A stretch of DNA of 64,000 nt. It comes from Candidatus Buchananbacteria bacterium (lineage in GTDB: Bacteria; Patescibacteriota; Patescibacteriia; 2-01-FULL-39-33; JBAYJR01). Under the pieces are notes generated by a model. It did not search any database. It was not told the origin of the DNA and saw only the letters and a list, made by a program, of their open reading frames with translations. Within the stretch, counting starts at the first letter, position 1, and the number at the start of each line of letters is the position of its first letter. Below, piece after piece: positions 6,058 through 61,903 of the stretch. The stretch lies in assembly GCA_041665005.1 (NCBI GenBank), contig JBAYJR010000008.1, positions 1,423 to 65,422 on the forward strand, in the 5' to 3' direction. A program made the position numbers and the translations under genes.

Positions 6058-6061
6058 AAAA

Positions 6062-27482: not shown

Positions 27483-27489
27483 ATCTAAG

Positions 27490-28107: not shown

Positions 28108-28129
28108 AGTTTAACCTCAACTAACAAGG

Positions 28130-28218: not shown

Positions 28219-28226
28219 ATAAAATA

Positions 28227-28469
28227 TTAATTACCCAGTAACCACTTTAGACGCTCCCTGCCCTTGCCGCTTTTTAAAAACTTTTCCTCTTTTTGAGCGA
28301 AGTTTTTAGAAATAAAAGCTGCATAATAAACAAGCTGCCATGGTCCATTTTGCTTAGTGAACACGGAATTACCAGTCTTATGCTCAGAAATTCTTCTTTT
28401 TAAATCATTAGTAAAACCCTTATATAATTTACCGTTCTTTAAACTCTTTAATATATATACGTAATACAT
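28227..28469 (-). CDS. Small stand-alone GIY-YIG nuclease domain protein (copy 1)
   Basis: 80 aa. MYYVYILKS...GKLYKGFTNDLKRRISEH...GKGRERLKWLL shows the GIY...YIG motifs and the conserved Arg and Glu. Confidence 0.75.
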   Translation of the reverse strand: MYYVYILKSLKNGKLYKGFTNDLKRRISEHKTGNSVFTKQNGPWQLVYYAAFISKNFAQKEEKFLKSGKGRERLKWLLGN

Positions 28470-28483
28470 ATTAATTCACTCCC

Positions 28484-28535
28484 AGCCCGAGGCTGGTCGG
28501 CCTTGGGCCGAGGCCAACTCTCCCTAAAATTTTCA
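28484..28535. repeat. GC-rich hairpin element (copy 1) fused to a duplicated 5' end of tRNA-Ser(GCU)
   Basis: cccagcccgaggctggtcggccttgggc forms a 9-bp stem. It is followed by ggccaactctcc(c)taaaat, which duplicates the 5' end and upstream flank of the tRNA at 28203-28226. Confidence 0.55.
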
Positions 28536-28575
28536 CTATCTTATTCCTCTCTCTTCCGCTCATTACTACCCACTG

Positions 28576-28662
28576 CGGAGAGAGTGGGATTCGAACCCAC
28601 GGAACCAATTAAGGTTCGGCAGTTTAGTAAACTGCTGATTTAAACCGCTCATCCATCTCTCC
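28576..28662 (-). tRNA. Type II Ser-like tRNA whose anticodon loop I read as UUACUAA, i.e. anticodon ACU (unusual A34)
   Basis: Hand-folded, 87 nt. Acceptor GGAGAGA/UCUCUCC, G73, 3-bp D-stem GAU/AUC, anticodon stem GCAGU/ACUGC, a 5-bp-stem variable arm and T-arm GUGGG-UUCGAAU-CCCAC. Confidence 0.7.
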
Positions 28663-28769
28663 TGGTTATTCTTCAAACTTATCAAAACAACTAATGTAAT
28701 AACCACTATTGCATTTTAAACTACAAACATAGTGCCTAATTTTATCTTCCCGCCTTCGCTCGTTTTCTG

Positions 28770-28857
28770 CGGAGAGGGCGAGATTCGAACTCGCGAGACT
28801 CTTTTGAAGCCTAACGGTTTTCAAGACCGTCCCATTCAACCACTCTGGCACCTCTCC
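28770..28857 (-). tRNA. tRNA-Ser (anticodon UGA), type II
   Basis: Hand-folded. Acceptor GGAGAGG, D-stem CCA/UGG, anticodon stem ACGGU/ACCGU, loop CUUGAAA, a long variable arm, T-arm GCGAG-UUCGAAU-CUCGC and G73. Track ORF 28666..28851 overlaps it and is spurious. Confidence 0.85.
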
Positions 28858-35602: not shown

Positions 35603-38600
35603 TTACTTATAATATTTAATCAAACCCGAGAGTTCGTTCACGATGTCATCAATTTCTTCCTGACTACCAAACATCTTTTTCTGTTCAACTCCGGCCATAA
35701 AATTCTTCAATTCACTGCTAGCTCGGTCAAGTTTTTGTTTTTGACCAACATCTCCACTCTTTTTACTTACTTTATTTAAAGCTTTAATTCTGTTCTGTAG
35801 ACTATGCACAGTTTTATTTAAAACTTTGACATCTTTATCAAAATTTTTCATATTTAATGGCAAGCTAGACAAGCGACGAATACCCTCGGAAAAGGAAATT
35901 ATACTACGATCCAATTTAGGCAGAAAAGCTTGATTAATTTTGTCCTGCAGAATCGGATGCACCATTTGCCCCGCTACAGCCGCCGCCGTTTTAATCAACT
36001 TGGAATCACGATCTGTAACAGTTTCTCTTCTTTTTTGCTCTTCTTTGCCGGAATAATATTCATCAATCTTTTTTCTAAGGTCACCAAACAACATATAGGC
36101 GGCCCGATCATATTTTAAAACACTCGCCCCCGTATTGGCAATTTTCCTCACACCGCTCTTTTTATTTTCTTCTTCATAACGAATTCGTTCTAATGGCCGA
36201 TTAACCACGGTAAAACTATCGTCTATCGCCTTCTGATTATTTTTAGCTTCTTTAATGGCTTTTTCTTTAGTGTCTTTATTGTCTGAAAGAGTATCCCCTA
36301 AAGCGCTCGCTTGTTTATCAGTGGCCTTGCTAATATTTTCCAAATCCTTATAAACAACACTCTTCTCTTTTAAATAATCAGCAAAAGAATATTTTTCCTT
36401 TCGATCCGGCCTTAAAATATCTGTTTTAGCATCACCCTTAGAACTAGCCACCGACTCCATACTTACTCTTAATTCCTCAGCTAAATTTTTAATTTTTTCG
36501 TTTATCCCATAGGCCTGAATTTCCTCGCCTGGTTTTAATTTATCATAATTAAACTTAGCGGCCTGTTCTTTTAATACTTGCAATTCTTGCAAACGATCAT
36601 CCCAATTAGCCACTTTTAACTCTTTAACAAACATTTCTTCATTTTTTACTACCTCCGCATCCGCCGCAACATAATATTTTTCTTTATTGGCTCTAGTTTT
36701 TAAATCAGTGGACTCAATTTCTTCTCTACGCTTAACAACTTCATCACTCAACTTATTACCCGCTAAATCCTCAGCAGTTGAAATAAATTTAATACCAGTA
36801 TTTGGATCAAATCCCTCGATGTATTTTCTATCGGGGCTATCTAGCAAACCCTTAACATCACCTTTTGGAAGATTCATTGCTTCATAATCTATATTACTAC
36901 CACTATAGGCAACGGTAGCCATGTTAATTACCTTGTTCAAATCATCAATGGTATTTTTATTATTCAAATCAAAGCCTTCCTTGGCGAATAACTCCGGTTT
37001 AGCCAGCATATTTTTGACTGCCTCCATAATTTGCCGGCGACCAGCCGCACCTGCAAAACCCAAATTACCACCAGCTTTAATATAATCCGCAATACCCATA
37101 ATCTGTTGCGAAACATTAGCCCCCTTCATGCCCAAACTACTATTAGTAATCACAATATTAGACAAATCTTTTTCGGACATATTAGCCACTGTATTACGAA
37201 CAGAGTTTGCTCCAACTTCAGTGCCTACCAATTGTCCGTCCTCATTTTTGTAACCAGATACTCCCACTAAACCAGCATTTTTCCTGGTCGCCAATCTTTC
37301 CATATCATAAGCAAAGGTTTTAAAATCCGCTTCTGGAATATTAAATTGCTTTTGATATTTTTGTAAGCTTTCTCCTAATTCAGAGTCCCCTGCTTCGGCT
37401 AAAGAGGTAATTAAAGCCCGAGCCGTGCCAACATCTTTATTCTTTTTCAAAATTTCATGAGCGGCATTGGTGTTGGTAAAATCAAAACCGGATTTTTGTA
37501 AGCTATCGCGAGCCGCCATCTGTTCCTCTTGTCTAAATTTCTCAATGGCATCCGCTTTACCACCAAACTTTTGATTCATCTGAGCTTGAATTAACCGATT
37601 ATCGCGTTCAGTTTTCTTTTCATTAAAGCCCAACACCCCGCCAATTCGCGAATTAGCAAAACGATTATAAGAAGCCCGCGCCGCCGCCGGCACCCGAGTT
37701 TTTTCACCAAAATTTTTGGCAATTTTGGTACCTTTCTTTTGAATTTCCCCCATAGCTTTATTAGCTAATTGAGAACCAACTGTGCCAGCCTTACCAGCAG
37801 CAATTAAGGCGGCAATTAATAAACCAATAGTTAAAATTGAGACAAATATTTGCTCGGTTGAGGTGTTCAAAAAATCCCCCACACCTTCTCCTGTGCCCGA
37901 AACTATACCACCTACCACCTTAAACTTACTACTAATCTCGTCTTTTAAACTACCGGCCGTCACTGATCCCGTACTATCGGTTCCTGATGGACCAATCATA
38001 GCATTCAAAAAATTCATAGAGATAAACAAAAACAGGGCGATGGCTGGGCCAACCACTAAATATTTTGTGAAAGTTGACCACCACTGCCCTGAATAAGTTT
38101 GCAACGCCGGAAAAGCCGAGGCAAAATAAGCAAAAGGTGATAAAACAATTAAAAACCAAAAAGCGATTATTCTGGCTAAAAGTATAATAAAGAATATTAA
38201 GATAACTACACAAGCAATAACCGAGAATATGGCGGCAGTGGCGGCCTTAATAAAATCCTCAACACCATTGCCTAAAGCCACATTAGCTATGGCCATATAT
38301 CCTACATTAAAAAAAGCAAGAACGCCCACCTTTATTGCAATCGTATTGGTTAGTTGTTGTGCGTTACCAAGCAAAGTTAACATCACTACTTGTGAAGCAT
38401 CAATTAATAACCCCGTGAACATCTTAGAAAAATTTATCAAGATAGCCATTAACAAAACTTTGCCTAGCAACCTTTTGTAATTATAAGTTTCTACCCTTAA
38501 AATGGTGGCCACCGCAATCACTAATAAAAACACAATAAAAAAATTATTACACAAATCTCTAATAAAAACCCAACTTTGAACCACACCATCGGCATTAATA

Positions 38601-38896
38601 AAATTACTATATTCAGCCACAATGCGTAATAAAAATAAGAAAAAAGTCATCAATGTAGCAAACAGAACTCCTGTAGCTGCTAATATCTCCGTATAAGGAA
38701 ATAATACAGCCCCAAGTGCAACCTTTGTTATTCCAGCGGCAATCTGGCTACCTGTACCGGCTTCCTGTGTAGCTGGTGTTGTCCCAGCAGTCTGTGCCGA
38801 CGCTCCGGCCATTGGCAAAACTAGACAACTTAAAACCACCGCTCCCGCCACAAACGTTAAAACTTTCTTTTGATTATTTTTTAACCAGTGCTTCAT
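35603..38896 (-). CDS. VirB6/TrbL-like polytopic membrane protein with a large hydrophilic C-terminal domain
   Basis: 1097 aa. Signal peptide, then 6-8 TM helices in the first about 380 aa with conserved Trp residues, followed by about 700 aa that are charged and coiled-coil-rich. Confidence 0.55.
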   Translation of the reverse strand: MKHWLKNNQKKVLTFVAGAVVLSCLVLPMAGASAQTAGTTPATQEAGTGSQIAAGITKVALGAVLFPYTEILAATGVLFATLMTFFLFLLRIVAEYSNFINADGVVQSWVFIRDLCNNFFIVFLLVIAVATILRVETYNYKRLLGKVLLMAILINFSKMFTGLLIDASQVVMLTLLGNAQQLTNTIAIKVGVLAFFNVGYMAIANVALGNGVEDFIKAATAAIFSVIACVVILIFFIILLARIIAFWFLIVLSPFAYFASAFPALQTYSGQWWSTFTKYLVVGPAIALFLFISMNFLNAMIGPSGTDSTGSVTAGSLKDEISSKFKVVGGIVSGTGEGVGDFLNTSTEQIFVSILTIGLLIAALIAAGKAGTVGSQLANKAMGEIQKKGTKIAKNFGEKTRVPAAARASYNRFANSRIGGVLGFNEKKTERDNRLIQAQMNQKFGGKADAIEKFRQEEQMAARDSLQKSGFDFTNTNAAHEILKKNKDVGTARALITSLAEAGDSELGESLQKYQKQFNIPEADFKTFAYDMERLATRKNAGLVGVSGYKNEDGQLVGTEVGANSVRNTVANMSEKDLSNIVITNSSLGMKGANVSQQIMGIADYIKAGGNLGFAGAAGRRQIMEAVKNMLAKPELFAKEGFDLNNKNTIDDLNKVINMATVAYSGSNIDYEAMNLPKGDVKGLLDSPDRKYIEGFDPNTGIKFISTAEDLAGNKLSDEVVKRREEIESTDLKTRANKEKYYVAADAEVVKNEEMFVKELKVANWDDRLQELQVLKEQAAKFNYDKLKPGEEIQAYGINEKIKNLAEELRVSMESVASSKGDAKTDILRPDRKEKYSFADYLKEKSVVYKDLENISKATDKQASALGDTLSDNKDTKEKAIKEAKNNQKAIDDSFTVVNRPLERIRYEEENKKSGVRKIANTGASVLKYDRAAYMLFGDLRKKIDEYYSGKEEQKRRETVTDRDSKLIKTAAAVAGQMVHPILQDKINQAFLPKLDRSIISFSEGIRRLSSLPLNMKNFDKDVKVLNKTVHSLQNRIKALNKVSKKSGDVGQKQKLDRASSELKNFMAGVEQKKMFGSQEEIDDIVNELSGLIKYYK

Positions 38897-38906
38897 AAAA
38901 ATTTAA

Positions 38907-41900
38907 TTATTGACTAACCTTAACCGTGGGCCCTTTTTGCCAGGCATTAGTATCAGTACTGCAAGCATTTTGATAATAACCCCAAGCCGAGGTGCCAAAA
39001 GGAGCCAAAACTGCCGAACCAAGATTTAAATTACCGTTGCACCAGCCCCAATTATCTTTTACCTGAATAGCAATTGGCGCTGAACAAGTAGTACCGGAAC
39101 AAACGCCCGTGCCCAGGCTAACATTCTTTTTCATAGAATAATAATCATAGGTGTGATACAACACCACCGGCGTAGAGGAGCTAGAAGAATCGCGTAACGA
39201 CACACCGGAAACTGCTGTTTCGGTGCCATCGCCCCAATTAACTTTATAAGCAGTTAACGGCCATTGGTTGGCATCAATTGTAATATTAAATTCCAAACCC
39301 GCCGTTTGGGTGCCAACCCCCAAACTAACCACATCAGAAGTCTGCACGCCATTAACTTTTATCTTAGTCACCCGCGGCGCTAAGGCACAGTAATCGGCAT
39401 CTGGATCAGTCGCATCATAAGGTGGCCGAGTTAAATTTCGTTGATGAGTATCGGCACAAAGATTACCTTCATCAGGAACACTCCATAATTTTTTGTTGCT
39501 AATTTCATACTTTTTATCAGTCCAATTCCAACTCCATTCCGCATAAGCTTGGGCAAATAATCTTTTTAAAGAAATGGTAGCCGAATCAATAGTGGCGTAA
39601 GAGCCTTCAACAAAATTACTGGGATCAACGTTATATCCATTAATTGACCAATTACCCGCACGGTCAAAACCAACATTACCACAACCGCCATACTCGTTAT
39701 CGCAAGAATAAAATTCCCCCGCATGAGCCTTGCCACTATAAGTACTACTAGGATCGCCAGCGATATCTACCGGCAATAAAGACCAATCAGTCGGATTATA
39801 ATCCGGGCTAGGCGCTAAAATGCTGGCAAAAGGCGCATAATCATCGTTTTGCGAAAAATTCTGCACCGCGGTTTTATAACCACTGCCACTCGACACCCGT
39901 CCCAACCAGGCCTTGTTTTGACCATTAGGAGTTACCGTTTGAATAATATCCGTACAAAAACTAGCGGCCGTAACTGGCGGATCAGAAATAGTTTTGCTAT
40001 TAGTCTGACAACAATTATAACCAGACGCTTCCGTGCATTTTAGAGCTCTAACACATTCTCCGGAACCAGCCACAGTTAATAACTGTGAGCGATAAAATAA
40101 AATTTTACCAGTTAAGACCACCTCCGTCCCAGCTGCACAAGTAGCTGAAGTAAGATCAACATTATAAACATGGTTAGCATCTCCATCGCACAGAACATGT
40201 TGACCAGAACGGAAAGGTAAAGAACCGCTAGTTGCATCCTTGCTGATTACCGAATACCCATAATATTTCTGACCATTATTATCTGTATAAACTTCATCTT
40301 GATTATTATAAACAAAAGCCAAGCAAACATCAGAATCAGTGCTAATCTTTTGCACATCGGAGGCGTAACCAAAATAAGGCTCATAACCATCAACTGACAA
40401 ATAATAATATTTTGTAGCATCACTATTATCATAAGCTTGATACCAAGCAGTGGTGCCATATTTACTAGCCACTCCACTACAATTATTAGGATTATCGCCA
40501 CCTTCGTTCCAAGAAGCGGTAGCAATTATTCCTTCAAAACGTTTTTGCAAAAGTGTACCGGCCGCGCAGTAATACAACGGCGAACGACCGGAGTAACCAC
40601 CGTAGCTACCAGTTAACTCCCCTTTAGGCAAGTCAATTGGCCACCACTGTAAACAAATTTTGGTATTTTTACTGTCATATTGCAAGCAATAACCTTTTTG
40701 TCCGCGATAAGTAACATTAGTAGCAGTATTGGTATAATCACAACTTAAAGCTGAATCTTCAGGGTATAACCGACAATCGGTGGCCAAGATAGATTTACCA
40801 TTTATCTTTAAGGCGGGCTTCAAACGTAAATTAGCAAAATAACTTGAACCAGAACCCTCAGCAACCACCCCGGTGCTAACCGCGGGGTTAAAATTAGAAA
40901 GTTCTAGTCTTAATTGAGTGGTATTAGCAGAAGTTTTAATTCTAACGGTAAATGGCGTCCAGTCTTTTCTGGCCATCAAATAATAAACACTGTAAGCGCC
41001 ACGACTATTCATTCCAAAAGTATTAGTCGCACCATCATTAAATGTTTGGTCCAACAACCAAACCTGTTCACTGCTTGGTGAAATCCGCGGATTAGTGGTG
41101 GCGTCTTGATTTAAATAAACCTTAGTACCATTATTCTTTAATTCCCACACCTGAACCACCGCTTGAGCTGTGGCGGGATTTAAATTTAAAGTATTAATAT
41201 AACCAGACACCACGTATTCGCTGTCAGGAAACACGTCAATTAATTCTGACTCTACAATTACCGCTTCACCCTTTTCATAATCACCATAATTAACCTTTAG
41301 TACCGGCTTATTATTGGGTGAGGTAATGCCTTCGGTAATTAAATCTGAAGGATTGGTGATGGCCTTAAAATATTTAGTATTCCAAGAACCCAGCGTGCTG
41401 GCATTACACCAATTTTGTTTATACTCTTTGGGGGCTATATGATCATCGCAAACCCAAGAGTCGTAACAAATCTGACTAGCTTTATTAGAACAAGTATCAG
41501 AACTTAACGGCAACCAACCACGAGGCTGACCGTCGTCTTGCAGGTCCGTAAAATCACCATTTGGCACTTCGGTACTTTCACCTACTTGAGTCATTTGCGC
41601 AAACGGGAAATCGCCCGTAAATTTAGATTGATAACCAACCTTGGTATAGCCACTTAGATTGGCCACTAAACCCGGCTGGGTAGGATTATAATTTAATTCA
41701 GCCACTTCTTGATTTAAAACTTGCGAACAATTACCTTTTTCGTCCACCGCTTTGCATAAGCCCAAATCTAAACAAACATCTTTGTTGCGATTGGCCGTGC
41801 CAATATTACTGGTGCCATCGTTACTGGCAATGGAAGTTTTACAATATAACCAAGTATTACACACCCGATCCGGTGTAACTTTTAAAATAGTATTGCTATC

Positions 41901-44900
41901 GCAACGATTCCAAATATCCACTTGGCAGTTAGTGCCGGCCGTGCCATTACCATTGTTATCGGGATTAACCGGACTGACGTCGGAATCATAACCATTTTTT
42001 AAATAATCACTACTATGACTGATGGCGTAGCTATCGCGATTATTAAACAGCACGCAACCTAGGCCCGGATTAACCACACCGTTACAAGACTTAGCATCTA
42101 AATTATCCGCCAGAGTGTAGTAAGGATTATTTTCTACCAACCTTATTTCGGCTATCGCAAAACTGCTTTGTGTTGCTTTAATACCCAAAGTTAGTGCTGT
42201 TGCCTGACCAGTATAAACTCGACCACTAAAACTAACAAAATCACTCGGGTTAACCTGATCATTACCTACTACTAAATTGTAAGAATTATAAGCCGGAACC
42301 GCAACTAAAGAACCATCGGGAGAAGATAATTGATTAGCAACCGAACTGGTCACAAAAGTTTCAAATCTACCGCCTTCCCCAGCCAAAACCAATTTTACTT
42401 TAGCGGACAAAGTATATAAAGTATTAGCTTTAACTTTTAAACCACTGCCAGTAATCACATAAGTATTGCCAGAATTTAAAGCTAATTTACCAGCGCTATC
42501 ACTATAAGAAATTTCCGCCCCCGCTGCGGTTTTCCAACCACTAATATAATCTTGCCCCGCGGCCGTATATTTTTGACTAAAATCAGCGTTAAATACTAAA
42601 TTGGAACCATTAATTCCCGCTGGCTCAATTAATTCAGTGCAAGAATTTTGACTGGCCGGACATAACCCCGCGTAGCCGCCGGGTGAGGCAATAGTCGTTA
42701 AATCCACTGGTTGAGTCACTGGCGATTCAGAATAACCAACCGTATAAAGTGGCGAGGCGGAATAATTTGGACAGGGAATTAACACTTCACTACCCGCCGA
42801 ATTTTTACTGCGCACATACCAAGCCGGAGTAGTTAAACCGGCCTTAGTGATATATTCACAAGCCCGACCATTCACCGGGCCAGTGGTGGTGGCGGTATTT
42901 AACGGATTGCGGAAAAAGTAAGTATTATCATTGGCGGTAAATTTATCGCAACGGAAATAAGGATCTGAACAAAATACTTGCGTAGGACTATTCAAATCTA
43001 AAATTTTATAAGTGGTGCTATAAGTATTGACAACTGGGGCCGTCCAATCGGTTTGGTAATCTTTTTGCCCCACCGCCTGGCAACCCACCGCTTCGGCCGT
43101 GCAATATTTTTTACTGTCATTAACCCAATAAGAGATTGTATCCGCCGGCGCATGATAAATATAGGCCGAATCATTCCCGTTAGACAAATTTAAAGTTTGC
43201 GCTTCGGGCGAATTGGTGTTGGCGGTATCAATCAAGGCTTCACAACCCGCGGCATCAGCCGGACATAATTCACTAAACTGCCGGAAATACCAATTAACCT
43301 TATCAACATCTTGATATTGTTGACACCCCGCCATATAACCGGTAACGCAACGGGAAGGCGTACCTTCTGTTCCCCCGCAAGCGGCGCCCACCTGATCATC
43401 CAAAATATTATCGCAAGCCACCGGCACGTTCCAAGAATTTTTTATTAAATAAGTATTGCTACGAATCAACTTGATTAAAATATTATCTAAATACCAACCA
43501 GCGCTGGTAATTTTTAAAGCGGTGGTTAAATCACCAGTCACCGTCGCTGGCAAGGTGAAATTATTTTTATAAACTCCCCACTGCGTAGTTGATAAAGTAC
43601 TGCCAGTACCACTGATAGGATAAATTTGATAATCAATACCGGATAATTGCAAAGTCGGCTTAACATTGGCGTTGTAGGCTTTGGCAATAAAACTGATTTC
43701 ATATTCTTGACCGGATTGTAATACAAAATTACCCGAAGTAACATTACTAGCAATTATTTTTAAACTATGTCCACCAGCATAACTGGCTTCGGAGCTAACA
43801 TTAAAGCTACCAGTTGCTCCCGACCAAACCGGATTATTTTCAAAAGTATCTAAAAATATTTGTTTAGTATTATTGCCACTATTGCCTAAATATTGACGGC
43901 AACCGGCTAAATTAGCAGCACACTGATTACCTTCATTAGGCACCGCATAATACAAACACTCACTGCCATTCCACCAACCGGCCACACCTACCCAAGTACC
44001 GGCGGCATTTACACCACTACAATCTTGCTCGGCCGTGTTACCATTTTGCGGGTTTTGATTGTAATTATTGGTAGTGCGGCGATAAGGATGACAGTTTTCT
44101 GAAGAAGTAACCGTTAATGATAATTTACGTTTGTAATTAGCTCCACGCGTATCAAAAAATTCTCGGCAATCGCTGTCGGTAGCCGGGTCACAACTGTCCG
44201 TTGAATAAGTGGCTATTTCGTTACAAGCCGTCACGCTGGGTGAGCTGTAAGTTAAATGTGTGCACGGCGGATAACTGGTAATACCACTAGCCTTATCAGC
44301 CACGGCGGTATCGCTTTTTCTTAATTGATAAGTTTTTAATTGATAACCAGTAGTATCCGAACCTTCCCAAGTATAATAAGTACCCTCTGTAGCGGCGTTA
44401 GGTTGTTGACATAATTTTAACTTAGAATAATATTCTTTGCCTTCGCCGCCCCTAGCTTGTTCATCAACATTAGTAAATTCTTCACAACCAGCCGCTTCGG
44501 CCGTACAAGTTTTACCGTTATTAATTAAATATTGATTGCTTGGCGCGCTAAAAGTTGTCCCTTGTTCCACATAGTTAGCATAGCCCACACAACTTGCCGG
44601 GCATTGATCAGTACTATGCGTAATAGCCGAAACATCTGGATCACCATTAACCGGCTTATATAATTGACAGCCAATATCTTGCTCGGTGCAGGCGGTGGCA
44701 TAATTTACGCATTGCGCATTATCGTTGCTCTTTTTTAAACTGCCATCAGTATTATAATCATCACAATAATAATAAGCAGGCGGTTTGGTTAAATATAATA
44801 AATTTTTAGTGCCATAATCGGTAACCGCGCTAACCGCTGTTTCGTTACTATTTACTTCTTCCAAAAATATTTGATCTAAATAAATTTTGGCCGTGGCGCT

Positions 44901-47495
44901 GCCGTTGCAATTACTAAAATTAAAATTAATTGTACCTGGATCCGCCCAAGAATTTATTTTAATAGTTTCAGTAGTAAATTTTTGCCAATCAGTAGTAATA
45001 TTTAAAGTCGCTTCGTTATTATATTCTTTAAAAGTCTGGTGGGTTTTATTTTGACCTACTTCATTGTTATATAAAGGAGAAGCACTATCGCCAAAAGATA
45101 AATTTGCATACCAATGACTAGTAGCGTCTTCCGCCTTACCCCAAAAAGACAAACGATAATAATGATTAGGTTTTAAATAAGGCTTAACCAGTTGACTGGT
45201 TAATTGCTGACAACTAGCATCGCCGGTAGGTACCGAACGATTAACCAACGCTAAAACTTTACTGCCAAAAATACCAGTATCTCCTTGGGGTATATCAGCT
45301 GTATTGATTACATCGGCAAAAACCGAACCATTAAAAATTTCCCAAGCCTTGGGGTTATTAATATTTACCGTTGAGCCTTCGGTTTGTGCCCAAACGACCG
45401 AATTAACCCCCTCTTCAAAACTATTGTTAGCAATTAAATTAGTGCCTAAACTAGGTTTTAAACGAATAAATTTAGAACAACCCGCTTGGGCACTGGTACA
45501 AGCTTGCGCATCATTATCTAAATAATAAATTGCATTATAACTTTGACCACCAGACACGGAAATATTGGCTTGCCACAGGCCATTAGCTTGCCACACGCTA
45601 TAAGGTCGGCAACCGGCTACGCCATTAGTACCATAACCGTCACCAACCGCACAAGACCAAGACACAGAATTTTTTAAATAAGAAACTGTTTGGCCATTTG
45701 AATTTTGAAAAGTTTGACAACTGTTATAGACCGGGCTACAACTACTATTTTTACCAAAATCATAAGTCCGACGTTCTTCGGTGCAATAACCATAAAATTT
45801 ACAAGAGCCATCTTCATTTTCCACAATGCAACTCTGCTCATCCGCGCAATAATCTTCGCGCGATAAAGATAAAGAAGAGGGCGTGTCGCCGTTATCATCA
45901 TAATCGCCATCGGCGTTAGCATCCGTGCCACTGTTGACCGAGCTACTAGAAACTTTTGGCCCCGGACCTTCTTTACGGCAATAGGCTTCTGGCGCTTTTA
46001 ACACCCAATTGGGGTCCACCAAGCCTTTGAGTGGCAATAAATCCGCATTACCATAATATTTACTGGCCGGATCATTAACTCCTACTACTTGTTCTAAACT
46101 AAAATTTTGGCCGGCAAAATCCCGAATGTATTGGGCCGCTACTTCCCAGCCCACCGGTAAAATTCGATATTTACGTAAAATTAAAAAACTACGATAAGGA
46201 TAACCATTTTTATAATCTGGCTCTTTGCCGGCGGTGCCCTGCGTGGCTTCAAAACCAAAGGCCTTTTTACCGTCCAGCCAACCTTCAGCCATGGCCTGCT
46301 TAACCGTCAAACCCTTTTCAATACCAAACCGGAATTTTTCATCAATGACGCAATCAGTTGGCCCGGGATTAGAAGAATCCGGACAAGCCGTTAATTTATT
46401 CAAAATGTCATAAGGCCCGCCAACAATCGGCGAGACATCACGCAGACTAGCAAAGCGAGTTTTGGCGGCTGCTTGACCACTGCTAGCAGAACCAGATTCG
46501 TAATTATAAACTGTAGACGAAGAATCGCTGTCGTCATTATTCCAATATAAACCGTTAATTAAATTTTGTAAGACCTGACCAATCAAAGTATTGGTAAAAA
46601 CCGCAATCGCATCGGCCACCGGTTCCCCCACCCAACTTTTTTCTCGCACCGTAGCATCAGTAATCATCCCCTTAAAAAAGAATTCCGCCACCGCTGCCCC
46701 AGGAGTTTTAATTTTGTCATCTTTAGTTTTAATATCCTTAAAACCTAAATTTTGTATTTTTTCTAAAATTGCCAACTGTTCAATCTTATCCTGAGTTTTA
46801 AACATTACTTCTTTTAAATCCAAATACAAACTCAGGTCATTTTCTGATTTTAAAACCGTGGCTAATTTTGGTAAATATTGTTCGTCTTTAATCGCATCAT
46901 CCCAATTACTAATCATTTTTGATATTTTGCAACGACTGGAATAAGTAGTCGGCTTGGTCAAACCTAAGCCCACCATAATATTTATTTGAGTTTTTAAACT
47001 AGGGGCGCAAATATCCAAACTAAACAAGGTGGTGCCATTTTGTTTAATGGTAAATTTACCGGCCGTAAATTCACCGCCGCCGCTATTCCAGGCCACGCTT
47101 AATTTGTCTAAAAAAGTTCCCGCTAAATTATCCGCCGCATCCGTTAAATAACTAGTCCAACCCTTGGTCACAAATAATGGCTCTTGACCTTCCCCACCCG
47201 AAGCAATCCAAGTGGCGGTGTCGTAAGCAATTTGATTTAAAAAATTACCCAAAGCAGTCTTAAAAGCAATCTTAGCCGCTTTGGTTAAACTGTCTTTGAG
47301 AGTTTGTTTCGTGGCGGCGGTAGTTCTTGGTATATCCGAAACAACTTTAATTGGAACACCAGGCACCACGTTAGTCGCAGATTCAGGAACTAGCCCTGCC
47401 CCTTGCGCCAAAACTAACAACGGTGAAACTAACAAAACTAGACTAAAAAAGATTAAGGCTGATTTTTGAAAAATATTTTTAGTTTTTACCGGCAT
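38907..47495 (-). CDS. Giant secreted Cys-rich surface protein (2862 aa) with several CBM4_9-like beta-sandwich modules and a C-terminal PKD-like domain. Putative adhesin.
   Basis: N-terminal signal/anchor (ALIFFSLVLLVSPLLVLA). Repeated N.SFE...W...G...Y.LSFW.KA CBM-like blocks. C-terminal VNWGDGTE...VLYHTY PKD signature. Very high Cys, Trp, Tyr, Asn, Ser, Thr and Gly content. Confidence 0.75.
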   Translation of the reverse strand: MPVKTKNIFQKSALIFFSLVLLVSPLLVLAQGAGLVPESATNVVPGVPIKVVSDIPRTTAATKQTLKDSLTKAAKIAFKTALGNFLNQIAYDTATWIASGGEGQEPLFVTKGWTSYLTDAADNLAGTFLDKLSVAWNSGGGEFTAGKFTIKQNGTTLFSLDICAPSLKTQINIMVGLGLTKPTTYSSRCKISKMISNWDDAIKDEQYLPKLATVLKSENDLSLYLDLKEVMFKTQDKIEQLAILEKIQNLGFKDIKTKDDKIKTPGAAVAEFFFKGMITDATVREKSWVGEPVADAIAVFTNTLIGQVLQNLINGLYWNNDDSDSSSTVYNYESGSASSGQAAAKTRFASLRDVSPIVGGPYDILNKLTACPDSSNPGPTDCVIDEKFRFGIEKGLTVKQAMAEGWLDGKKAFGFEATQGTAGKEPDYKNGYPYRSFLILRKYRILPVGWEVAAQYIRDFAGQNFSLEQVVGVNDPASKYYGNADLLPLKGLVDPNWVLKAPEAYCRKEGPGPKVSSSSVNSGTDANADGDYDDNGDTPSSLSLSREDYCADEQSCIVENEDGSCKFYGYCTEERRTYDFGKNSSCSPVYNSCQTFQNSNGQTVSYLKNSVSWSCAVGDGYGTNGVAGCRPYSVWQANGLWQANISVSGGQSYNAIYYLDNDAQACTSAQAGCSKFIRLKPSLGTNLIANNSFEEGVNSVVWAQTEGSTVNINNPKAWEIFNGSVFADVINTADIPQGDTGIFGSKVLALVNRSVPTGDASCQQLTSQLVKPYLKPNHYYRLSFWGKAEDATSHWYANLSFGDSASPLYNNEVGQNKTHQTFKEYNNEATLNITTDWQKFTTETIKINSWADPGTINFNFSNCNGSATAKIYLDQIFLEEVNSNETAVSAVTDYGTKNLLYLTKPPAYYYCDDYNTDGSLKKSNDNAQCVNYATACTEQDIGCQLYKPVNGDPDVSAITHSTDQCPASCVGYANYVEQGTTFSAPSNQYLINNGKTCTAEAAGCEEFTNVDEQARGGEGKEYYSKLKLCQQPNAATEGTYYTWEGSDTTGYQLKTYQLRKSDTAVADKASGITSYPPCTHLTYSSPSVTACNEIATYSTDSCDPATDSDCREFFDTRGANYKRKLSLTVTSSENCHPYRRTTNNYNQNPQNGNTAEQDCSGVNAAGTWVGVAGWWNGSECLYYAVPNEGNQCAANLAGCRQYLGNSGNNTKQIFLDTFENNPVWSGATGSFNVSSEASYAGGHSLKIIASNVTSGNFVLQSGQEYEISFIAKAYNANVKPTLQLSGIDYQIYPISGTGSTLSTTQWGVYKNNFTLPATVTGDLTTALKITSAGWYLDNILIKLIRSNTYLIKNSWNVPVACDNILDDQVGAACGGTEGTPSRCVTGYMAGCQQYQDVDKVNWYFRQFSELCPADAAGCEALIDTANTNSPEAQTLNLSNGNDSAYIYHAPADTISYWVNDSKKYCTAEAVGCQAVGQKDYQTDWTAPVVNTYSTTYKILDLNSPTQVFCSDPYFRCDKFTANDNTYFFRNPLNTATTTGPVNGRACEYITKAGLTTPAWYVRSKNSAGSEVLIPCPNYSASPLYTVGYSESPVTQPVDLTTIASPGGYAGLCPASQNSCTELIEPAGINGSNLVFNADFSQKYTAAGQDYISGWKTAAGAEISYSDSAGKLALNSGNTYVITGSGLKVKANTLYTLSAKVKLVLAGEGGRFETFVTSSVANQLSSPDGSLVAVPAYNSYNLVVGNDQVNPSDFVSFSGRVYTGQATALTLGIKATQSSFAIAEIRLVENNPYYTLADNLDAKSCNGVVNPGLGCVLFNNRDSYAISHSSDYLKNGYDSDVSPVNPDNNGNGTAGTNCQVDIWNRCDSNTILKVTPDRVCNTWLYCKTSIASNDGTSNIGTANRNKDVCLDLGLCKAVDEKGNCSQVLNQEVAELNYNPTQPGLVANLSGYTKVGYQSKFTGDFPFAQMTQVGESTEVPNGDFTDLQDDGQPRGWLPLSSDTCSNKASQICYDSWVCDDHIAPKEYKQNWCNASTLGSWNTKYFKAITNPSDLITEGITSPNNKPVLKVNYGDYEKGEAVIVESELIDVFPDSEYVVSGYINTLNLNPATAQAVVQVWELKNNGTKVYLNQDATTNPRISPSSEQVWLLDQTFNDGATNTFGMNSRGAYSVYYLMARKDWTPFTVRIKTSANTTQLRLELSNFNPAVSTGVVAEGSGSSYFANLRLKPALKINGKSILATDCRLYPEDSALSCDYTNTATNVTYRGQKGYCLQYDSKNTKICLQWWPIDLPKGELTGSYGGYSGRSPLYYCAAGTLLQKRFEGIIATASWNEGGDNPNNCSGVASKYGTTAWYQAYDNSDATKYYYLSVDGYEPYFGYASDVQKISTDSDVCLAFVYNNQDEVYTDNNGQKYYGYSVISKDATSGSLPFRSGQHVLCDGDANHVYNVDLTSATCAAGTEVVLTGKILFYRSQLLTVAGSGECVRALKCTEASGYNCCQTNSKTISDPPVTAASFCTDIIQTVTPNGQNKAWLGRVSSGSGYKTAVQNFSQNDDYAPFASILAPSPDYNPTDWSLLPVDIAGDPSSTYSGKAHAGEFYSCDNEYGGCGNVGFDRAGNWSINGYNVDPSNFVEGSYATIDSATISLKRLFAQAYAEWSWNWTDKKYEISNKKLWSVPDEGNLCADTHQRNLTRPPYDATDPDADYCALAPRVTKIKVNGVQTSDVVSLGVGTQTAGLEFNITIDANQWPLTAYKVNWGDGTETAVSGVSLRDSSSSSTPVVLYHTYDYYSMKKNVSLGTGVCSGTTCSAPIAIQVKDNWGWCNGNLNLGSAVLAPFGTSAWGYYQNACSTDTNAWQKGPTVKVSQ

Positions 47496-53860: not shown

Positions 53861-56800
53861 CTAAATTACGATATTTACTAATCTATTTTTGATATAAATA
53901 AACTTTTTGATTGGTTGATTATCTAACCATTTTTGTATTTTATCCGAGGCCAACACTTTAGCCTTAACCTCTTCCTCAGAACTTTCGGCTGGTAAGGTAA
54001 TTTTATCGCGCACCTTGCCGTTAATTTGTATTACTACTTCAATTTCAGTCTCTAAAATTAATTTTGGATCAAACTTGGGCCAGGGTTCTAGACTAATGGA
54101 TTTTTTATGACCAAGTTTTTCCCATAACTCTTCCGCTAAATGCGGGGCAAATGGCGATAGGATGATTAAAAACTTTTCCCAAACTTCTTGATCGAGGTCA
54201 TCTGCCTGATTTTGCAAAGCATTAACTAAAATCATCATTTGTGAAATGGCCGTATTAAATCTAAAATTTTCAATGTCTTCGCCAACCTTTTTAATAGTTT
54301 GATGTAAAATTTTTTCTAGATCTGGATTGCTCTCCTTACCAATCCTATCTGACAAATTATAAATTTTTTCCAAAAACCGGCGCACGCCAATAATACTTTT
54401 AGTATTCCAGGGTTTAGCATCTTCAAACGGCCCCATAAACATTTCATACAACCGAAAAGTGTCGGCGCCGTATTCTTTTAACACTTCATCAGGATTAACC
54501 ACGTTGCCCCGCGACTTAGACATCTTTTCATTGTTTTCTCCCAAAATCATGCCTTGATTTTTTAACTTCATAAACGGCTCGGGCGTAGAAACAAAACCCG
54601 CATCAAACAAAACCTTATGCCAAAAACGCGCATAAAGTAAGTGCAACACGGCATGTTCCGCCCCACCGACATAAACATCTACCGGATTCCAATAATTTAT
54701 TTTTGCTAAATCCCATTCGTATTTTTTACTTTGAACTTTGAACTTTAAACTTTGAACTATTGCGTATGCGAGGTAATACCAACACGAACCCGCCCACTGC
54801 GGCATTGTATTAGTTTCGCGTTTAGCCTTGCCGCCACAACGCGGACATTTAGTATTCACCCACTCCGGCACATTAACTAGCGGCGACTCCCCGGTACCCG
54901 AAGGTTCATATTTTTCCACTGCCGGCAACTTAATGGGTAATTCTTCTTCCGGAACTGGTACCCAACCCAAATTTAAGGCTGACACAGAGGGAAATTCTTC
55001 TAAAATTTCTGGCAACTCTGTCGTTCCCCAACGCGAACTAAAATGTTTTTTGTCTTTAAAAACTACTACTTTGCCGTGTAATTCTAAAAAATCCTGTTGC
55101 ATCGTCACTGGTATATAAGGATCATCTTGAGAAAAATATAAGGTTGTTTTGGCCACCAAGTTATTTAATTGCGCGAAATCAACCTTAGCCCCGCCAAAAA
55201 GCTTAATGGTATTAATTTCATTATCCGTAAAATCATATTGCTTCACGTGTTGCCAATCGGAACTGTGGCCAACTGGTGCCACTAAAATTAATTTTTTAAC
55301 TGGTAATTTATTCTTTAAAATAAATTGCATGGCGGCCGGAGCGCCCAAAGAATGACCCACCACGAATAATTCATCGTCAGTAGTCAAACCTAATTTGCTC
55401 AACGGCTTTAGCCAATCATTTAATGCTAATTTTTCAGCTTTAGGTAAATCAGGAATAAGCACCTCGTATCCCCGATTTTCCATTTCTCGTTTAAAATAGG
55501 GAAACCAATTTTCTTGGGTATTGCCACCAAGGCCATGAATTAATAAAATTTTTGGCTTGCGCTTAGCACAAGTCTCGCAATAAACTAACGGAATCGGTTC
55601 GCCCCAATAACGTTGCCGCGAAAAAATCCAATCGCGGAGTTTATAGTTCACTTGTCGCTTGCCAATTAATTCTTGTTCCAACCAATCCGCCATTTTTTCG
55701 CGTGCCTCGGCCGAAGTCAAGCCAGTAAATTTTTCAGAATTAGTCAACACGCCGTCTTCCGTATAAGCTTCTTTAATATTATTAGTCATCTCTTCTAAAA
55801 ATATTGCTCTTTTTAAATCATTTTTACCTTGACGGCGTTCTTTAACTGCCGTTATCCGATAACAATCAGCTAACCATTGTGCCTGAGGCACCGGATATTT
55901 TATATTATTTATTTCTACCACTTGATCGCCTAGGTCATGATCAAAGGTACCTATTTCTAAAATAATTTTGCCTTTTTGATAAATAGAAACCTTAAACTTC
56001 TCATTTTCTTTATCTTCAATCTTTTGATAGCCATTATTTTCCACTACTTCTTTAGCGGCCAAAAAATCTTTAACCAAAACCCCACAATCAACATCAGCTG
56101 GTAAATCAAAAAACTTACCATAATAGCCAGCCACCCCAAAAGTACCGTTAAACCAAACTTTAATGTTTTTTGCCTGCAATAATTGGTTGACTTCTTGAAC
56201 CACCTCTAACATTTCGGATATTTGTTGACTTTGATTCACCTCACCCAAAACTGGCACGATAGTTGGCGTAATTCCAATCTTATGTTTTTTTGCAAATTCA
56301 AAATCCCGTTCATCATGCGCTGGCACGGCCATCACGGCGCCGGTGCCATAATGCCCTAGTACAAAATCACCAACGTAAATGGGAATTTCTTGTTTAGTAA
56401 ACGGATTAATCGCTTTAACGCCTTGTAATTCTACACCGGTTTTTTCTTTATTTAATTCGGTGCGCTCTAAATCCGACTTACTTTGCGAATCCTGAATATA
56501 TTTTTGTACCTCTTCAATATTTTTGATTTTTAAATTTTGCTCTTTGATTTCGAGGAGCGAAGCGACGAGCGGATGTTCCGGCGCGATGACACAAAAAGTC
56601 ATCCCAAATACCGTATCAATTCTGGTGGTATAAACGGATAATTTTTGATTAGTAATAGTTAGTGGTAAATCAAACTGTACGCCTTCCGAACGACCAATCC
56701 AATTGCGTTGTAAAATTTTAATTGACTCTGGCCAATCTAATAACGCCAAATCTTTTTCTAACCTGTCAGCATAATCCGTAATTTTTAAAATCCATTGCCG

Positions 56801-57379
56801 AATTGATTTTTTAACCACCGCCGTGCCACACCGATCACACTTGCCATCCTTGACCTCTTCATTGGCTAAACCCGTTTTGCATGATGGGCAAAAATTAATC
56901 GGCGCCTGACTTTCGTAAGCTAAACCACGGTTAAACAATTGTAAAAAAATCCATTGGGTCCATTTATAATACGCCGGGTCCGTAGTATTCACTTCGCGCG
57001 ACCAATCATAAGAAAAACCCAAGGCTTTAATTTGGCGCCGAATGTTATCAATATTTTTTTGCGTAGTCACCGCCGGATGCGTGCCAGTTTTAATGGCATA
57101 ATTTTCGGCTGGCAAACCAAAGGCATCCCAACCCATGGGGTGCAGTACTAATTTGCCTTGGGCACGTTGGTAACGAGAGTAAATATCCGTAGCGGTATAA
57201 CCTTCAGGATGCCCCACATGCAAACCTTCACCCGACGGATAAGGAAACATATCCAACACATAGACGCGCTGATCTTTGGGAATTTTTTTATCTTCTTTGA
57301 CCGCAAACAATTTTTCTTGCTCCCAAATTTTCTGCCACTTAGCCTCAATTTCTTGATGATTATATTTTTGTTCCGCCAT
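53861..57379 (-). CDS. leuS: Leucyl-tRNA synthetase with two large in-frame insertions, including an RBBP9/YdeN-type serine hydrolase domain
   Basis: 1172 aa. HIGH (HVGHPEGY) and KMSKS (KMSKSRGN) motifs, a CP1 editing domain, and a C-terminal anticodon-binding region. There are about 310 extra residues compared with typical bacterial LeuS. Confidence 0.93.
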   Translation of the reverse strand: MAEQKYNHQEIEAKWQKIWEQEKLFAVKEDKKIPKDQRVYVLDMFPYPSGEGLHVGHPEGYTATDIYSRYQRAQGKLVLHPMGWDAFGLPAENYAIKTGTHPAVTTQKNIDNIRRQIKALGFSYDWSREVNTTDPAYYKWTQWIFLQLFNRGLAYESQAPINFCPSCKTGLANEEVKDGKCDRCGTAVVKKSIRQWILKITDYADRLEKDLALLDWPESIKILQRNWIGRSEGVQFDLPLTITNQKLSVYTTRIDTVFGMTFCVIAPEHPLVASLLEIKEQNLKIKNIEEVQKYIQDSQSKSDLERTELNKEKTGVELQGVKAINPFTKQEIPIYVGDFVLGHYGTGAVMAVPAHDERDFEFAKKHKIGITPTIVPVLGEVNQSQQISEMLEVVQEVNQLLQAKNIKVWFNGTFGVAGYYGKFFDLPADVDCGVLVKDFLAAKEVVENNGYQKIEDKENEKFKVSIYQKGKIILEIGTFDHDLGDQVVEINNIKYPVPQAQWLADCYRITAVKERRQGKNDLKRAIFLEEMTNNIKEAYTEDGVLTNSEKFTGLTSAEAREKMADWLEQELIGKRQVNYKLRDWIFSRQRYWGEPIPLVYCETCAKRKPKILLIHGLGGNTQENWFPYFKREMENRGYEVLIPDLPKAEKLALNDWLKPLSKLGLTTDDELFVVGHSLGAPAAMQFILKNKLPVKKLILVAPVGHSSDWQHVKQYDFTDNEINTIKLFGGAKVDFAQLNNLVAKTTLYFSQDDPYIPVTMQQDFLELHGKVVVFKDKKHFSSRWGTTELPEILEEFPSVSALNLGWVPVPEEELPIKLPAVEKYEPSGTGESPLVNVPEWVNTKCPRCGGKAKRETNTMPQWAGSCWYYLAYAIVQSLKFKVQSKKYEWDLAKINYWNPVDVYVGGAEHAVLHLLYARFWHKVLFDAGFVSTPEPFMKLKNQGMILGENNEKMSKSRGNVVNPDEVLKEYGADTFRLYEMFMGPFEDAKPWNTKSIIGVRRFLEKIYNLSDRIGKESNPDLEKILHQTIKKVGEDIENFRFNTAISQMMILVNALQNQADDLDQEVWEKFLIILSPFAPHLAEELWEKLGHKKSISLEPWPKFDPKLILETEIEVVIQINGKVRDKITLPAESSEEEVKAKVLASDKIQKWLDNQPIKKFIYIKNRLVNIVI

Positions 57380-60496: not shown

Positions 60497-61165
60497 TCAC
60501 GAAATAATGCCGGCGGGTGTTTTGGCAAATTCCCGCCATAAAATTTCGGCCTTATACGGATAGACCCATCCAACCCCGCTGATCAACGGCTGATAAAATT
60601 TTTGCGATTCCAAAATTTTACGCTGACGCTTGGGTTCTGGCAAAAAACACACGGTCCGCATGTTATCCAAATTATCTACCAATTTAGTAAGATGGACATA
60701 CAAACCGCCTTGAATAATTTGTTGATGATAGGCTTCCTGTCGCTTAAAGTCGCAGGGTTGACCAAATTCATCAATAAACCTTGGGTCCCCTGGTCGCGGC
60801 TTAGAAACCACCATCACAATAGTCGAAACTCTTAACCCCAAATTATCCGTAATTTCCTGATAACTGGAGGACTGACCGGTTTTCTCGCTTACCCTTTTTT
60901 CGTCCTCAGTCTCAATTACATCATGCAATAGATAGGCCTGCAATAAAAAAGCTTTTCTAAGATTCAATTCATAATGCAAGGTCTTGAGGCCACGTAATAA
61001 GTGACAGCAATAATCTTCACCAGACAACCGATACTGGCCTTCATGAGCTGCTAAGGCTTTCTGCCAAGCCCACTCTAAACCGATAATCTCTGACCGACGA
61101 TAACAACCACTGACCCGGCTAACTAACAACTGAAATTCTGACAACACCAACGGGTTGATTGCCAT
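60497..61165 (-). CDS. Small alarmone hydrolase: RelA/SpoT-type HD-domain (p)ppGpp hydrolase
   Basis: 222 aa. AAHEGQYRLSGEDY...LLHDVIETED matches the HD motifs of the SpoT hydrolase domain. Confidence 0.65.
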   Translation of the reverse strand: MAINPLVLSEFQLLVSRVSGCYRRSEIIGLEWAWQKALAAHEGQYRLSGEDYCCHLLRGLKTLHYELNLRKAFLLQAYLLHDVIETEDEKRVSEKTGQSSSYQEITDNLGLRVSTIVMVVSKPRPGDPRFIDEFGQPCDFKRQEAYHQQIIQGGLYVHLTKLVDNLDNMRTVCFLPEPKRQRKILESQKFYQPLISGVGWVYPYKAEILWREFAKTPAGIIS

Positions 61166-61279: not shown

Positions 61280-61903
61280 TTATTTTCTTTTTACCGCTTT
61301 TTTAATCAGTTTAATAAGCTCGGGAAATTTGGCTATTTTAAAATGTCCGTTTTTGCTTTCGTAAAAAATAAACTTAGCCTGGCTTAGCTTATTTTGATAT
61401 TTTTTAGCCTGTACCATTGGCACTACCGGATCATCTTTAGAAAATAACAAATAAAGATTTTTAGAACTTTTTTCCAACCTTGATAAATCTGCTGATAATT
61501 TAAACCCCCCCACCAAATCGTCACTTGGCAAGGTGTTATCAAATGGCGGACAAATTAAATAGGTGGCTAAAATTTTTTTGGGAAATTTATTTTCAGACAA
61601 ATACTTAGCCAAAAAAATTCCCCCCAACGACCCCCCAATTAAAACTAAGTTATTTCGCAACAAAGGAAAATATCGTTCAAAATAAATTTTCCACTCAACA
61701 TACTTTGCATCATCAGCTTTGGGCATTCGGGGCTGAATGACTTCAAAATTTTGACCCAGTTTTTTCTTTAAATAATCATCGGACCAACGCACTTTTTCCT
61801 CAATAGATATCTTTCGGTTTTTTAAAAAACTTAAATAATCACGTTTATTTTTAAAGGTGGTACCGCCAGAGATATAAACTACCTGGGTTTTGGTTTTTGG
61901 CAT
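61280..61903 (-). CDS. Alpha/beta-hydrolase-fold serine hydrolase (GxSxG), possibly RBBP9/YdeN-like
   Basis: 207 aa. GGSLGG nucleophile elbow and a C-terminal ...SKDDPVVP...GHF block. Confidence 0.55.
   Translation of the reverse strand: MPKTKTQVVYISGGTTFKNKRDYLSFLKNRKISIEEKVRWSDDYLKKKLGQNFEVIQPRMPKADDAKYVEWKIYFERYFPLLRNNLVLIGGSLGGIFLAKYLSENKFPKKILATYLICPPFDNTLPSDDLVGGFKLSADLSRLEKSSKNLYLLFSKDDPVVPMVQAKKYQNKLSQAKFIFYESKNGHFKIAKFPELIKLIKKAVKRK

Follow-up and report, generated by a model that had tools for sequence, protein, structure and literature searches.

A YdeN/RBBP9-type serine hydrolase domain inserted in the zinc-knuckle region of a Patescibacterial leucyl-tRNA synthetase

Few enzymes are as conserved as the aminoacyl-tRNA synthetases, and bacterial ones rarely gain new catalytic domains. 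The CP1 domain of the leucyl-, isoleucyl- and valyl-tRNA synthetases (LeuRS, IleRS and ValRS) is a hydrolytic insertion into the Rossmann fold that clears wrong aminoacyl products. The NCBIfam model NF040702, named 'isoleucine--tRNA ligase, N-acetyltransferase domain-containing', likewise combines a class Ia synthetase with an extra enzyme. Among free-standing enzymes, MccF (S66 serine peptidase), MccE (GNAT) and MccH (HIT) disarm aminoacyl-adenylate mimics that poison a synthetase. Here we analyzed a 64,000-nucleotide stretch of a Candidatus Buchananbacteria contig (JBAYJR010000008.1, positions 1,423 to 65,422; hereafter the window), whose leuS gene encodes a LeuRS with a serine hydrolase domain of the family of Bacillus subtilis YdeN and human RBBP9 inserted in frame within its second zinc knuckle.

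The insert resembles YdeN (1UXO) and RBBP9 (2QS9, 7OEX) in its Pfam family (PF06821), its fold (TM-scores of 0.73-0.84), its GHSxG/D/H triad and its length of about 190 residues; however, both of these proteins are free-standing, whereas the insert is an internal synthetase domain. In our aligned set, the LeuRS-associated modules also carried 8-11 extra residues after the LVAP strand (around DW, residues 705-717), which neither YdeN nor RBBP9 has. The CP1 domain provides the analogy behind the role proposed below, but it lacks a Ser-Asp-His triad and is unrelated to the insert in fold and chemistry. Ancient and universally present, CP1 also contrasts with the hydrolase, whose insertion is lineage-restricted and patchy and can shift between loops. 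NF040702, compared by its model name only, concerns a different synthetase and a GNAT domain instead of an alpha/beta hydrolase, and it matched the window LeuRS weakly and partially through the shared synthetase core. The microcin C enzymes differ from the insert in having other folds, in being encoded by free-standing genes and in targeting AspRS. Neither the S66 family nor an MccF-type structure appeared among the Pfam and Foldseek matches of the insert, and the likeness to MccF is a functional analogy only. The hydrolase family and synthetases with accessory inserted domains were already known, and what appears new is a YdeN/RBBP9-type hydrolase inside LeuRS. A full-text literature search, whose coverage left out most subscription journals and which therefore offers absence of evidence only, found no description of inserted enzyme domains in the LeuRS of the candidate phyla radiation.

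The borders of the insert were defined by alignment with the LeuRS of Thermus thermophilus (1h3n). Window residues 532-605 corresponded to T. thermophilus residues 370-443, ending in PLVYCETCA, and window residues 805-962 to residues 443-594, starting with GWVPVPEEELP. Because the alignment meets at residue 443 from both sides, residues 606-804 represent a clean 199-residue addition with no residues lost. The T. thermophilus enzyme has zero residues at this point, here called site A, which lies between the Cys601/Cys604 and Cys845/Cys848 halves of the Zn2 knuckle; in bacterial LeuRS, the knuckle region carrying site A is named the Zn2 domain (PMC9424281). The GC content of the insert (0.36-0.40) was similar to that of the remaining gene and its flanks. 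The junctions (CA/KRKPK and ALNL/GW) were not intein-like and had no His-Asn/Cys junction, the Pfam scan of the protein and the insert matched no Hint or intein family, and only short, chance-level direct or inverted repeats and no mobile-element scars were found at the borders. An origin from an intein or a scar-leaving mobile element was consequently dropped.

The Pfam model PF06821 (Ser_hydrolase) matched residues 611-794 with 51.9 bits when the whole protein was searched and with 57.0 bits (E 2.9e-15) when the excised insert was used, against a gathering cut-off of 22 bits. A profile built from 24 modules retrieved B. subtilis YdeN (E 2.8e-36) and human RBBP9 (E 3.5e-26) from the PDB sequences. 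The AlphaFold2 model of the insert reached a mean predicted local distance difference test score (pLDDT) of 95.1 and a predicted TM-score of 0.92. Searching this model against the PDB with Foldseek revealed a compact, lid-less fold whose top nine matches were all YdeN, RBBP9 or YdeN-like (E 2e-14 to 4e-9). YdeN 1uxo ranked best (E 2e-14, TM-scores 0.79/0.84), followed by RBBP9 (7oex, 2qs9 and 9fcr) and the YdeN-like 3bdv, and generic esterases came after these. For the insert, Pfam, NCBIfam and Foldseek returned alpha/beta-hydrolases only, and no family with a known aminoacyl-tRNA editing or deacylase function (CP1, AlaX, YbaK/INS, Dtd, Pth) was matched. By its hidden Markov model match, predicted fold and triad, the insert is a PF06821 member.

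These results bear out a sequence-only reading of the window, which had placed an in-frame RBBP9/YdeN hydrolase with a complete triad and no intein signature inside the LeuRS zinc knuckle. All the peptides it quoted and the continuous frame were recovered in the leuS open reading frame (ORF), and its coordinates (54962-55564) agreed with the alignment border at 54968 within two codons. It had also allowed for an assembly chimera; as described below, numerous assemblies made independently share this junction.

The triad blocks of the insert aligned with the GHSxG, DDP and GHF blocks of YdeN and RBBP9, with Ser677, Asp753 and His779 as the putative catalytic residues. To judge their conservation, 51 embedded modules were compared, 44 of them in LeuRS and seven in small fusions. 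The serine was present in 100% of these modules, the aspartate and the histidine in 98% each, and the HG oxyanion motif in 92-98%, although the modules were merely 25-45% identical to that of the window. Retention of the triad at such low identity indicates selection for catalysis. As read from the sequence and the structural model, the gene encodes one polypeptide that displays an independently folding serine hydrolase on the loop between the two Zn2 CxxC halves.

The host itself looks like a functional bacterial LeuRS with both synthetic and CP1 editing motifs intact. TIGR00396 (leuS_bact) matched the whole protein with 1040 bits (cut-off 548), and the T. thermophilus enzyme matched the 1172-residue protein with E 3.6e-206. 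An identical protein (P0004) is held by NCBI, JGI and ENA and derives from a Candidatus Buchananbacteria metagenome-assembled genome. Alignment to the T. thermophilus motifs located the Thr-rich editing peptide and, at residue 345, the GTG...AHD editing block, which reads GTGAVMAVPAHD. T. thermophilus residues ~595-636, the leucine-specific domain, have no counterpart in the window LeuRS; at residues ~940-960 (the 54512..54650 region), where this domain is absent, the protein reads ...QGMILGENNEKMSKS. Among 30 full-length hydrolase-bearing LeuRS, the Thr-rich motif was kept in 28, the GTG..AHD block in 29 and the HIGH signature in 29, and 27 had the CxxC that follows RQRYWG. Since the CP1 motifs are kept in the window LeuRS and its relatives, the hydrolase does not replace a lost editing site, and its role as a substitute for a degenerate one was ruled out. 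The features of the gene and of its paralogue in the window are listed in Table 1.

Table 1. Positions of the leuS gene, its motifs and inserted modules, and the free-standing paralogue in the window (Tth, T. thermophilus LeuRS).
Feature	Coordinates	Strand	Evidence
leuS ORF, 1172 aa, bacterial-type LeuRS with two inserted domains	53861..57379	(-)	single uninterrupted frame
HIGH signature, HVGH, aa 54-57	57209..57220	(-)	motif read
CP1 editing-site Thr-rich peptide TTRIDT, intact, aa 251-256	56612..56629	(-)	aligned to T. thermophilus motif
Second module (ins1), aa 373-531, site B, C-terminal part of CP1; LnuA/ANT(2'')/MenT-like nucleotidyltransferase fold	55787..56263	(-)	alignment, PF10706, AlphaFold2, Foldseek
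Zn2 knuckle half 1, Cys601-x-x-Cys604, directly upstream of the insert	55568..55579	(-)	corresponds to Tth Cys439/Cys442
Serine hydrolase module of the YdeN/RBBP9 family at site A, aa 606-804	54968..55564	(-)	Tth alignment, PF06821, AlphaFold2, Foldseek
Nucleophile elbow G-H-S-L-G, aa 675-679 (Ser677 codon 55349..55351)	55343..55357	(-)	sequence; invariant in alignment A1
Putative catalytic Asp753 codon (in SQDDPYIP)	55121..55123	(-)	sequence; invariant in alignment A1
Putative catalytic His779 codon (in KKHF)	55043..55045	(-)	sequence; invariant in alignment A1
Zn2 knuckle half 2, Cys845-P-R-Cys848	54836..54847	(-)	corresponds to Tth Cys484/Cys487
KMSKS signature, aa 952-956	54512..54526	(-)	motif read
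Free-standing PF06821 paralogue, 207 aa, GGSLG elbow, not part of the fusion	61280..61903	(-)	PF06821 30.2 bits

The insertion is not peculiar to the window gene and represents one case of a recurrent, combinatorial insertion of domains into the LeuRS of Patescibacteria. When the whole protein was used as the query, many LeuRS of this group that bear PF06821 and/or NUDIX annotations were retrieved, as well as one each with Ham1, an IS200-type Y1 and a GIY-YIG domain. A word-index search with the insert alone returned just three free-standing proteins, and the LeuRS hosts surfaced when the insert was searched exhaustively against 1.84 billion representatives. This search gave 1860 homologues, mostly free-standing proteins of 170-200 residues. 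When the best 150 of the 1860 were examined, all the large hosts were LeuRS or LeuRS fragments, and there were also seven small non-LeuRS fusions, four of which join the hydrolase to a NUDIX, Ham1, adenylate kinase or IMPase-family domain. Dozens of independently assembled hydrolase-bearing LeuRS were found in NCBI, JGI, ENA and Logan, on contigs of up to 881 kb (P0020).

Three main positions were distinguished. Site A lies directly after the first CxxC, with the consensus ...HCExC[AK]x / KKxKvLLIHG ... EILxxI.. / xxGxVPVPExxLP. Within the C-terminal part of CP1, site B is flanked by ...AHDERDxEFAKKYxLPI and ...NSGxFNGL. Site C immediately precedes the Thr-rich editing peptide, between NWIGRSEG... 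and TTRxDT; in P0046 (Berkelbacteria), for example, the hydrolase occupies site C. Together with a rarer hydrolase site near residue 560, the hot spots fall at about residues 245, 372, 560 and 605 in window numbering. Over 20 different proteins in assemblies from NCBI, JGI, ENA and Logan, as well as 11 GTDB species genomes, share the site-A junction. An embedded hydrolase was present in 11 of 80 LeuRS loci from GTDB species genomes, with titles that include Falkowbacteria, Buchananbacteria and Paceibacterota, and four proteins (P0005, P0009, P0015 and P0124) carried two hydrolase modules each. The sampling favored relatives of the query and does not amount to a census. With the same hydrolase clade at three or four LeuRS surface loops and its catalytic residues kept, the sequence comparison shows a pairing that is inherited, recurrent and selected in Patescibacteria.

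Extra segments of at least 60 residues were counted in 200 LeuRS. The hydrolase occurred 23 times at site A, four times at site B, three times at site C and once near residue 560; about 55 NUDIX modules occupied site B. Across the 196 full-length LeuRS, NUDIX at B with hydrolase at A was the commonest hydrolase-bearing architecture. At site A, seven LeuRS (P0049, P0052, P0065, P0072, P0075, P0095 and P0102) held a conserved 130-residue module with no assigned family and weak ASCH-like matches only (PF04266 in two of the seven, E 0.03; PDB 1xne, E 0.09). Site C also held Ham1 (P0023, 1554 residues), an IS200-type Y1 (P0035) and PDDEXK_3 (L013), and GIY-YIG was found near residue 312 in P0118. 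When the LeuRS core sequences were arranged in a tree, LeuRS with inserts and compact ones (~800 residues) were interleaved within the Patescibacterial part, and the spirochaete- and Elusimicrobia-type sequences included no insert-bearing LeuRS. One match of 4.7 kb (L035, 3001..7696), apparently a 'split' LeuRS, was discarded, as tblastn had merged a MetRS gene (3001..4437), a TatD-like gene and a normal 802-residue LeuRS (5288..7696). The same apparent pattern was seen in the tblastn matches of L038 and L041.

The window LeuRS carries a second inserted enzyme-like domain at site B, designated ins1, which the sequence-only reading had left unmentioned. It comprises 159 residues, in frame, between T. 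thermophilus residues 360 and 370. PF10706, the aminoglycoside-2''-adenylyltransferase family, weakly matched 10 of 10 ins1 homologues (best E 1.7e-5) and gave 19.8 bits for the window copy, just below the cut-off of 21; the ins1 profile matched LnuA (4wh5) with E 0.027. The AlphaFold2 model (pLDDT 94.1) had ANT(2'')-Ia, TM1012, the MenT1 toxin and LnuA as its top Foldseek structures, and the G..G...DxD motif is kept (GTFGVAGYYG...DVDCG). The toxins of the MenT group are nucleotidyltransferases, with the acceptor ends of tRNAs as their targets. Modules of the ins1 type were also present at site C in four proteins (P0011, P0017, P0028 and P0096) and at site B of other LeuRS that carry no hydrolase. 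Only the window LeuRS, among the 196 full-length sequences, combined the nucleotidyltransferase at B with the hydrolase at A.

A pair of closely related LeuRS illustrates the probable mobility of the hydrolase. P0005 and P0016 are ~86% identical over their aligned N-terminal 648 residues and similarly close in their C-terminal parts, but differ by the precise presence or absence of the site-A module: in P0016, HCEKC is followed directly by GVVPVPEKDLP, whereas P0005 reads HCEKC, then RKKDK...PWPL, then GVISVSEKDLP. This difference suggests that the module was gained or lost recently, and recombination within the conserved flanks is a possible route. Those flanks (RQRYWGEPIP...HCExC and VPVPExxLP) would allow modules to move between leuS alleles by homologous recombination. 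P0005 also has a site-B copy, and because this and its site-A copy are just ~40% identical, the double copy does not represent a recent internal duplication.

A rough neighbor-joining tree calculated from the modules placed nearly all the embedded ones, whether at site A, B or C, in one block together with about 15 short proteins, and most free-standing proteins, including the paralogue in the window, fell outside it. The nearest free-standing homologue (P0001, 197 residues, 45% identity) lies 40 bp upstream of an insert-free, 841-residue leuS in the same orientation (L001, 1721..4880), a pair that looks like a split version of the fusion. The more distant free homologues P0002, P0273 and P0003 were not adjacent to leuS and had unrelated neighborhoods, and none of the 80 GTDB loci contained a free hydrolase within 3 kb of leuS. 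A hydrolase-leuS neighborhood was therefore not upheld as a general rule and applies to P0001 only. For the free-standing paralogue in the window, the sequence-only reading had proposed a donor or relative of the insert. It is a distant relative according to its PF06821 match, but a role as recent donor was rejected on the basis of 24% identity to the insert and its position outside the main LeuRS-embedded block, beside two divergent embedded modules. Directly next to this paralogue on the (-) strand lies a gene for a 222-residue HD_4 protein (60497..61165; RelA/SpoT-type HD hydrolase family), a further pairing of the hydrolase family with a nucleotide-hydrolase-type neighbor.

To our knowledge, RBBP9 is the sole PF06821 member with a defined chemistry. 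This serine aminopeptidase requires a free alpha-amine, and single amino acids (Leu/Ile, Met, Phe, Tyr and Trp) become bound to its serine as an acyl-enzyme (PMC8866121). It is also a valacyclovir-activating enzyme (Shenoy 2020, in the reference list of PMC7730578). Valacyclovir is a nucleoside analogue esterified with valine. Because RBBP9 acts on amino acids with a free amine and activates valacyclovir, we propose a reaction of the aminoacyl-ester type for the insert. The bond most likely to be hydrolyzed would be an ester, amide or anhydride that joins an alpha-aminoacyl (or small acyl) group to a nucleoside or nucleotide. Candidate substrates would be released, mis-made aminoacyl-adenylates or aminoacyl-tRNAs, or adenylate-mimicking inhibitors of LeuRS, and the hydrolase would then provide a third hydrolytic site of the synthetase, beside CP1. 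What aminoacyl-AMP, aminoacyl-tRNA and the leucyl-adenylate mimics have in common is an alpha-aminoacyl-X structure bound to a nucleoside. One of these mimics, TM84 (from agrocin 84), inhibits LeuRS and is of natural origin, and MccF sets the precedent of a serine hydrolase that cuts the aminoacyl part off adenylate mimics (PMC8323819).

Building on these analogies, we lean, with somewhat less than even confidence, towards the module being a live hydrolase tethered to LeuRS, with a substrate tied to LeuRS chemistry. Functional coupling is favored because LeuRS was the sole large host among the best 150 of 1860 homologues, because several sites are used and double copies exist, and because P0001 adjoins leuS. 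The companion inserts (NUDIX, Ham1 and nucleotidyltransferase) and the non-LeuRS fusions (with NUDIX, Ham1 and adenylate kinase) point to nucleotide-linked substrates. A more specific version, which we consider unlikely, would have Ser677 take the aminoacyl group from a non-cognate aminoacyl-adenylate or aminoacyl-tRNA, or from leucyl-adenylate-mimic toxins; the module would then belong to a new class of cis-acting proofreading or self-immunity domains, working with the NUDIX, Ham1 and MenT/LnuA-like modules on nucleotide-linked by-products or the tRNA 3' end.

Several observations weigh against a LeuRS-coupled hydrolase. When the substrate-binding residues of RBBP9 were mapped onto the insert by profile alignment, the alpha-amine anchors were not conserved (Ser76 is replaced by Leu and Tyr99 by Thr/Val) and the Glu108 region was gapped and unalignable; neither RBBP9-like specificity nor membership of the RBBP9-type aminopeptidase subclass can be assumed on this basis. 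YdeN, the closest structure, is without known function. The intact CP1 domain leaves no obvious gap for a new deacylase. As the LeuRS loops also take GIY-YIG, PDDEXK_3 and IS200-like Y1 domains, permissive loops fit these data better than a LeuRS-specific function does, and the distribution of the module across the LeuRS tree is patchy. Since the more distant free homologues do not lie beside leuS, the gene-neighbor evidence rests on the single case of P0001.

Nearly as likely as a LeuRS-coupled hydrolase, and thus a serious alternative, is a hitch-hiking housekeeping enzyme, active but unrelated to leucylation (for example, a general esterase or a nucleotide 'house-cleaning' enzyme), for which LeuRS would serve as a permissive, constitutively expressed, essential carrier in tiny genomes. 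The modules would be housekeeping or selfish cargo and would spread between lineages by homologous recombination via the conserved LeuRS flanks. Such an origin would agree with the very different modules found in the same loops (some 55 NUDIX at B, Ham1, the LnuA-like and ASCH-like 130-residue modules, GIY-YIG, PDDEXK_3 and Y1), with combinatorial architectures of which the one in the window is unique among the 196 LeuRS, and with a patchy distribution that includes clean presence or absence between near-identical LeuRS. Free-standing family members in unrelated neighborhoods and the fusions of the hydrolase to NUDIX, Ham1 or adenylate kinase without LeuRS point the same way. A random lodger, however, would be expected in many hosts, whereas LeuRS was the only large one among the best 150 homologues; the same hydrolase clade, moreover, recurs at three or four LeuRS sites and in double copies, and its nearest free-standing copy adjoins leuS.

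A non-catalytic role as a structural spacer, a docking surface (for a host cell or a partner protein, for instance) or a regulator of LeuRS appears improbable. Eukaryotic synthetases often gain non-catalytic appended domains, and RBBP9, as its name tells, was first described as a binding protein; but a triad and an HG oxyanion motif kept in 92-100% of embedded copies at 25-45% identity speak for catalysis. We give hardly any credence to an artefact or removable element, be it an assembly chimera that fused a hydrolase gene with leuS, a spliced element such as an intein, or a gene that is translated separately. The identical protein comes from a single contig, which would fit a chimera, but the same site-A junction is found in more than 20 proteins from many independent assemblies, the frame is continuous and the composition matches the remaining gene. 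A spliced element is further opposed by the missing Hint or intein families, His-Asn/Cys junction and flanking repeats beyond chance.

If the LeuRS-coupled hydrolase acts on aminoacyl-adenylates, mischarged tRNA or adenylate-mimic antibiotics, it would represent a new type of domain, serving in proofreading or in built-in immunity, and if it deacylates, a new kind of editing domain. If the module is merely a lodger, LeuRS would provide a natural map of insertion-tolerant loops and an example of function packing in reduced genomes. A radiation of small genomes has, as it appears from these comparisons, repeatedly placed complete small enzymes (hydrolase, NUDIX, ITPase and nucleotidyltransferase) inside one synthetase, at defined loops, in changing combinations and with catalytic residues preserved. 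The inserts also affect annotation. The NCBI names of the LeuRS genes P0004, P0009 and P0023 follow the inserts, as 'alpha/beta fold hydrolase' (P0004) or 'non-canonical purine NTP pyrophosphatase', and automated surveys may therefore score genomes as lacking LeuRS. The domain has not escaped the database pipelines, since one homologue is listed at JGI as 'leucyl-tRNA synthetase/predicted alpha/beta hydrolase family esterase'.

Apart from leuS, the window resembles an ordinary Patescibacteria chromosome, with genes for a GatA-type amidase, LigA, ClpB, RecG, UvrA and PFOR subunits. Two adjacent giant ORFs (2862 and 1097 residues) at 35603..47495 (-) had no Pfam match at E<=1e-5, and a TraG/VirB4-like P-loop ATPase is encoded at 30601..32502. 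A cluster of four tRNA genes was located at 26687..28857 (-); the length of three of them (87-89 nt) suggests that they have a long variable arm, as in the Leu, Ser or Tyr type.

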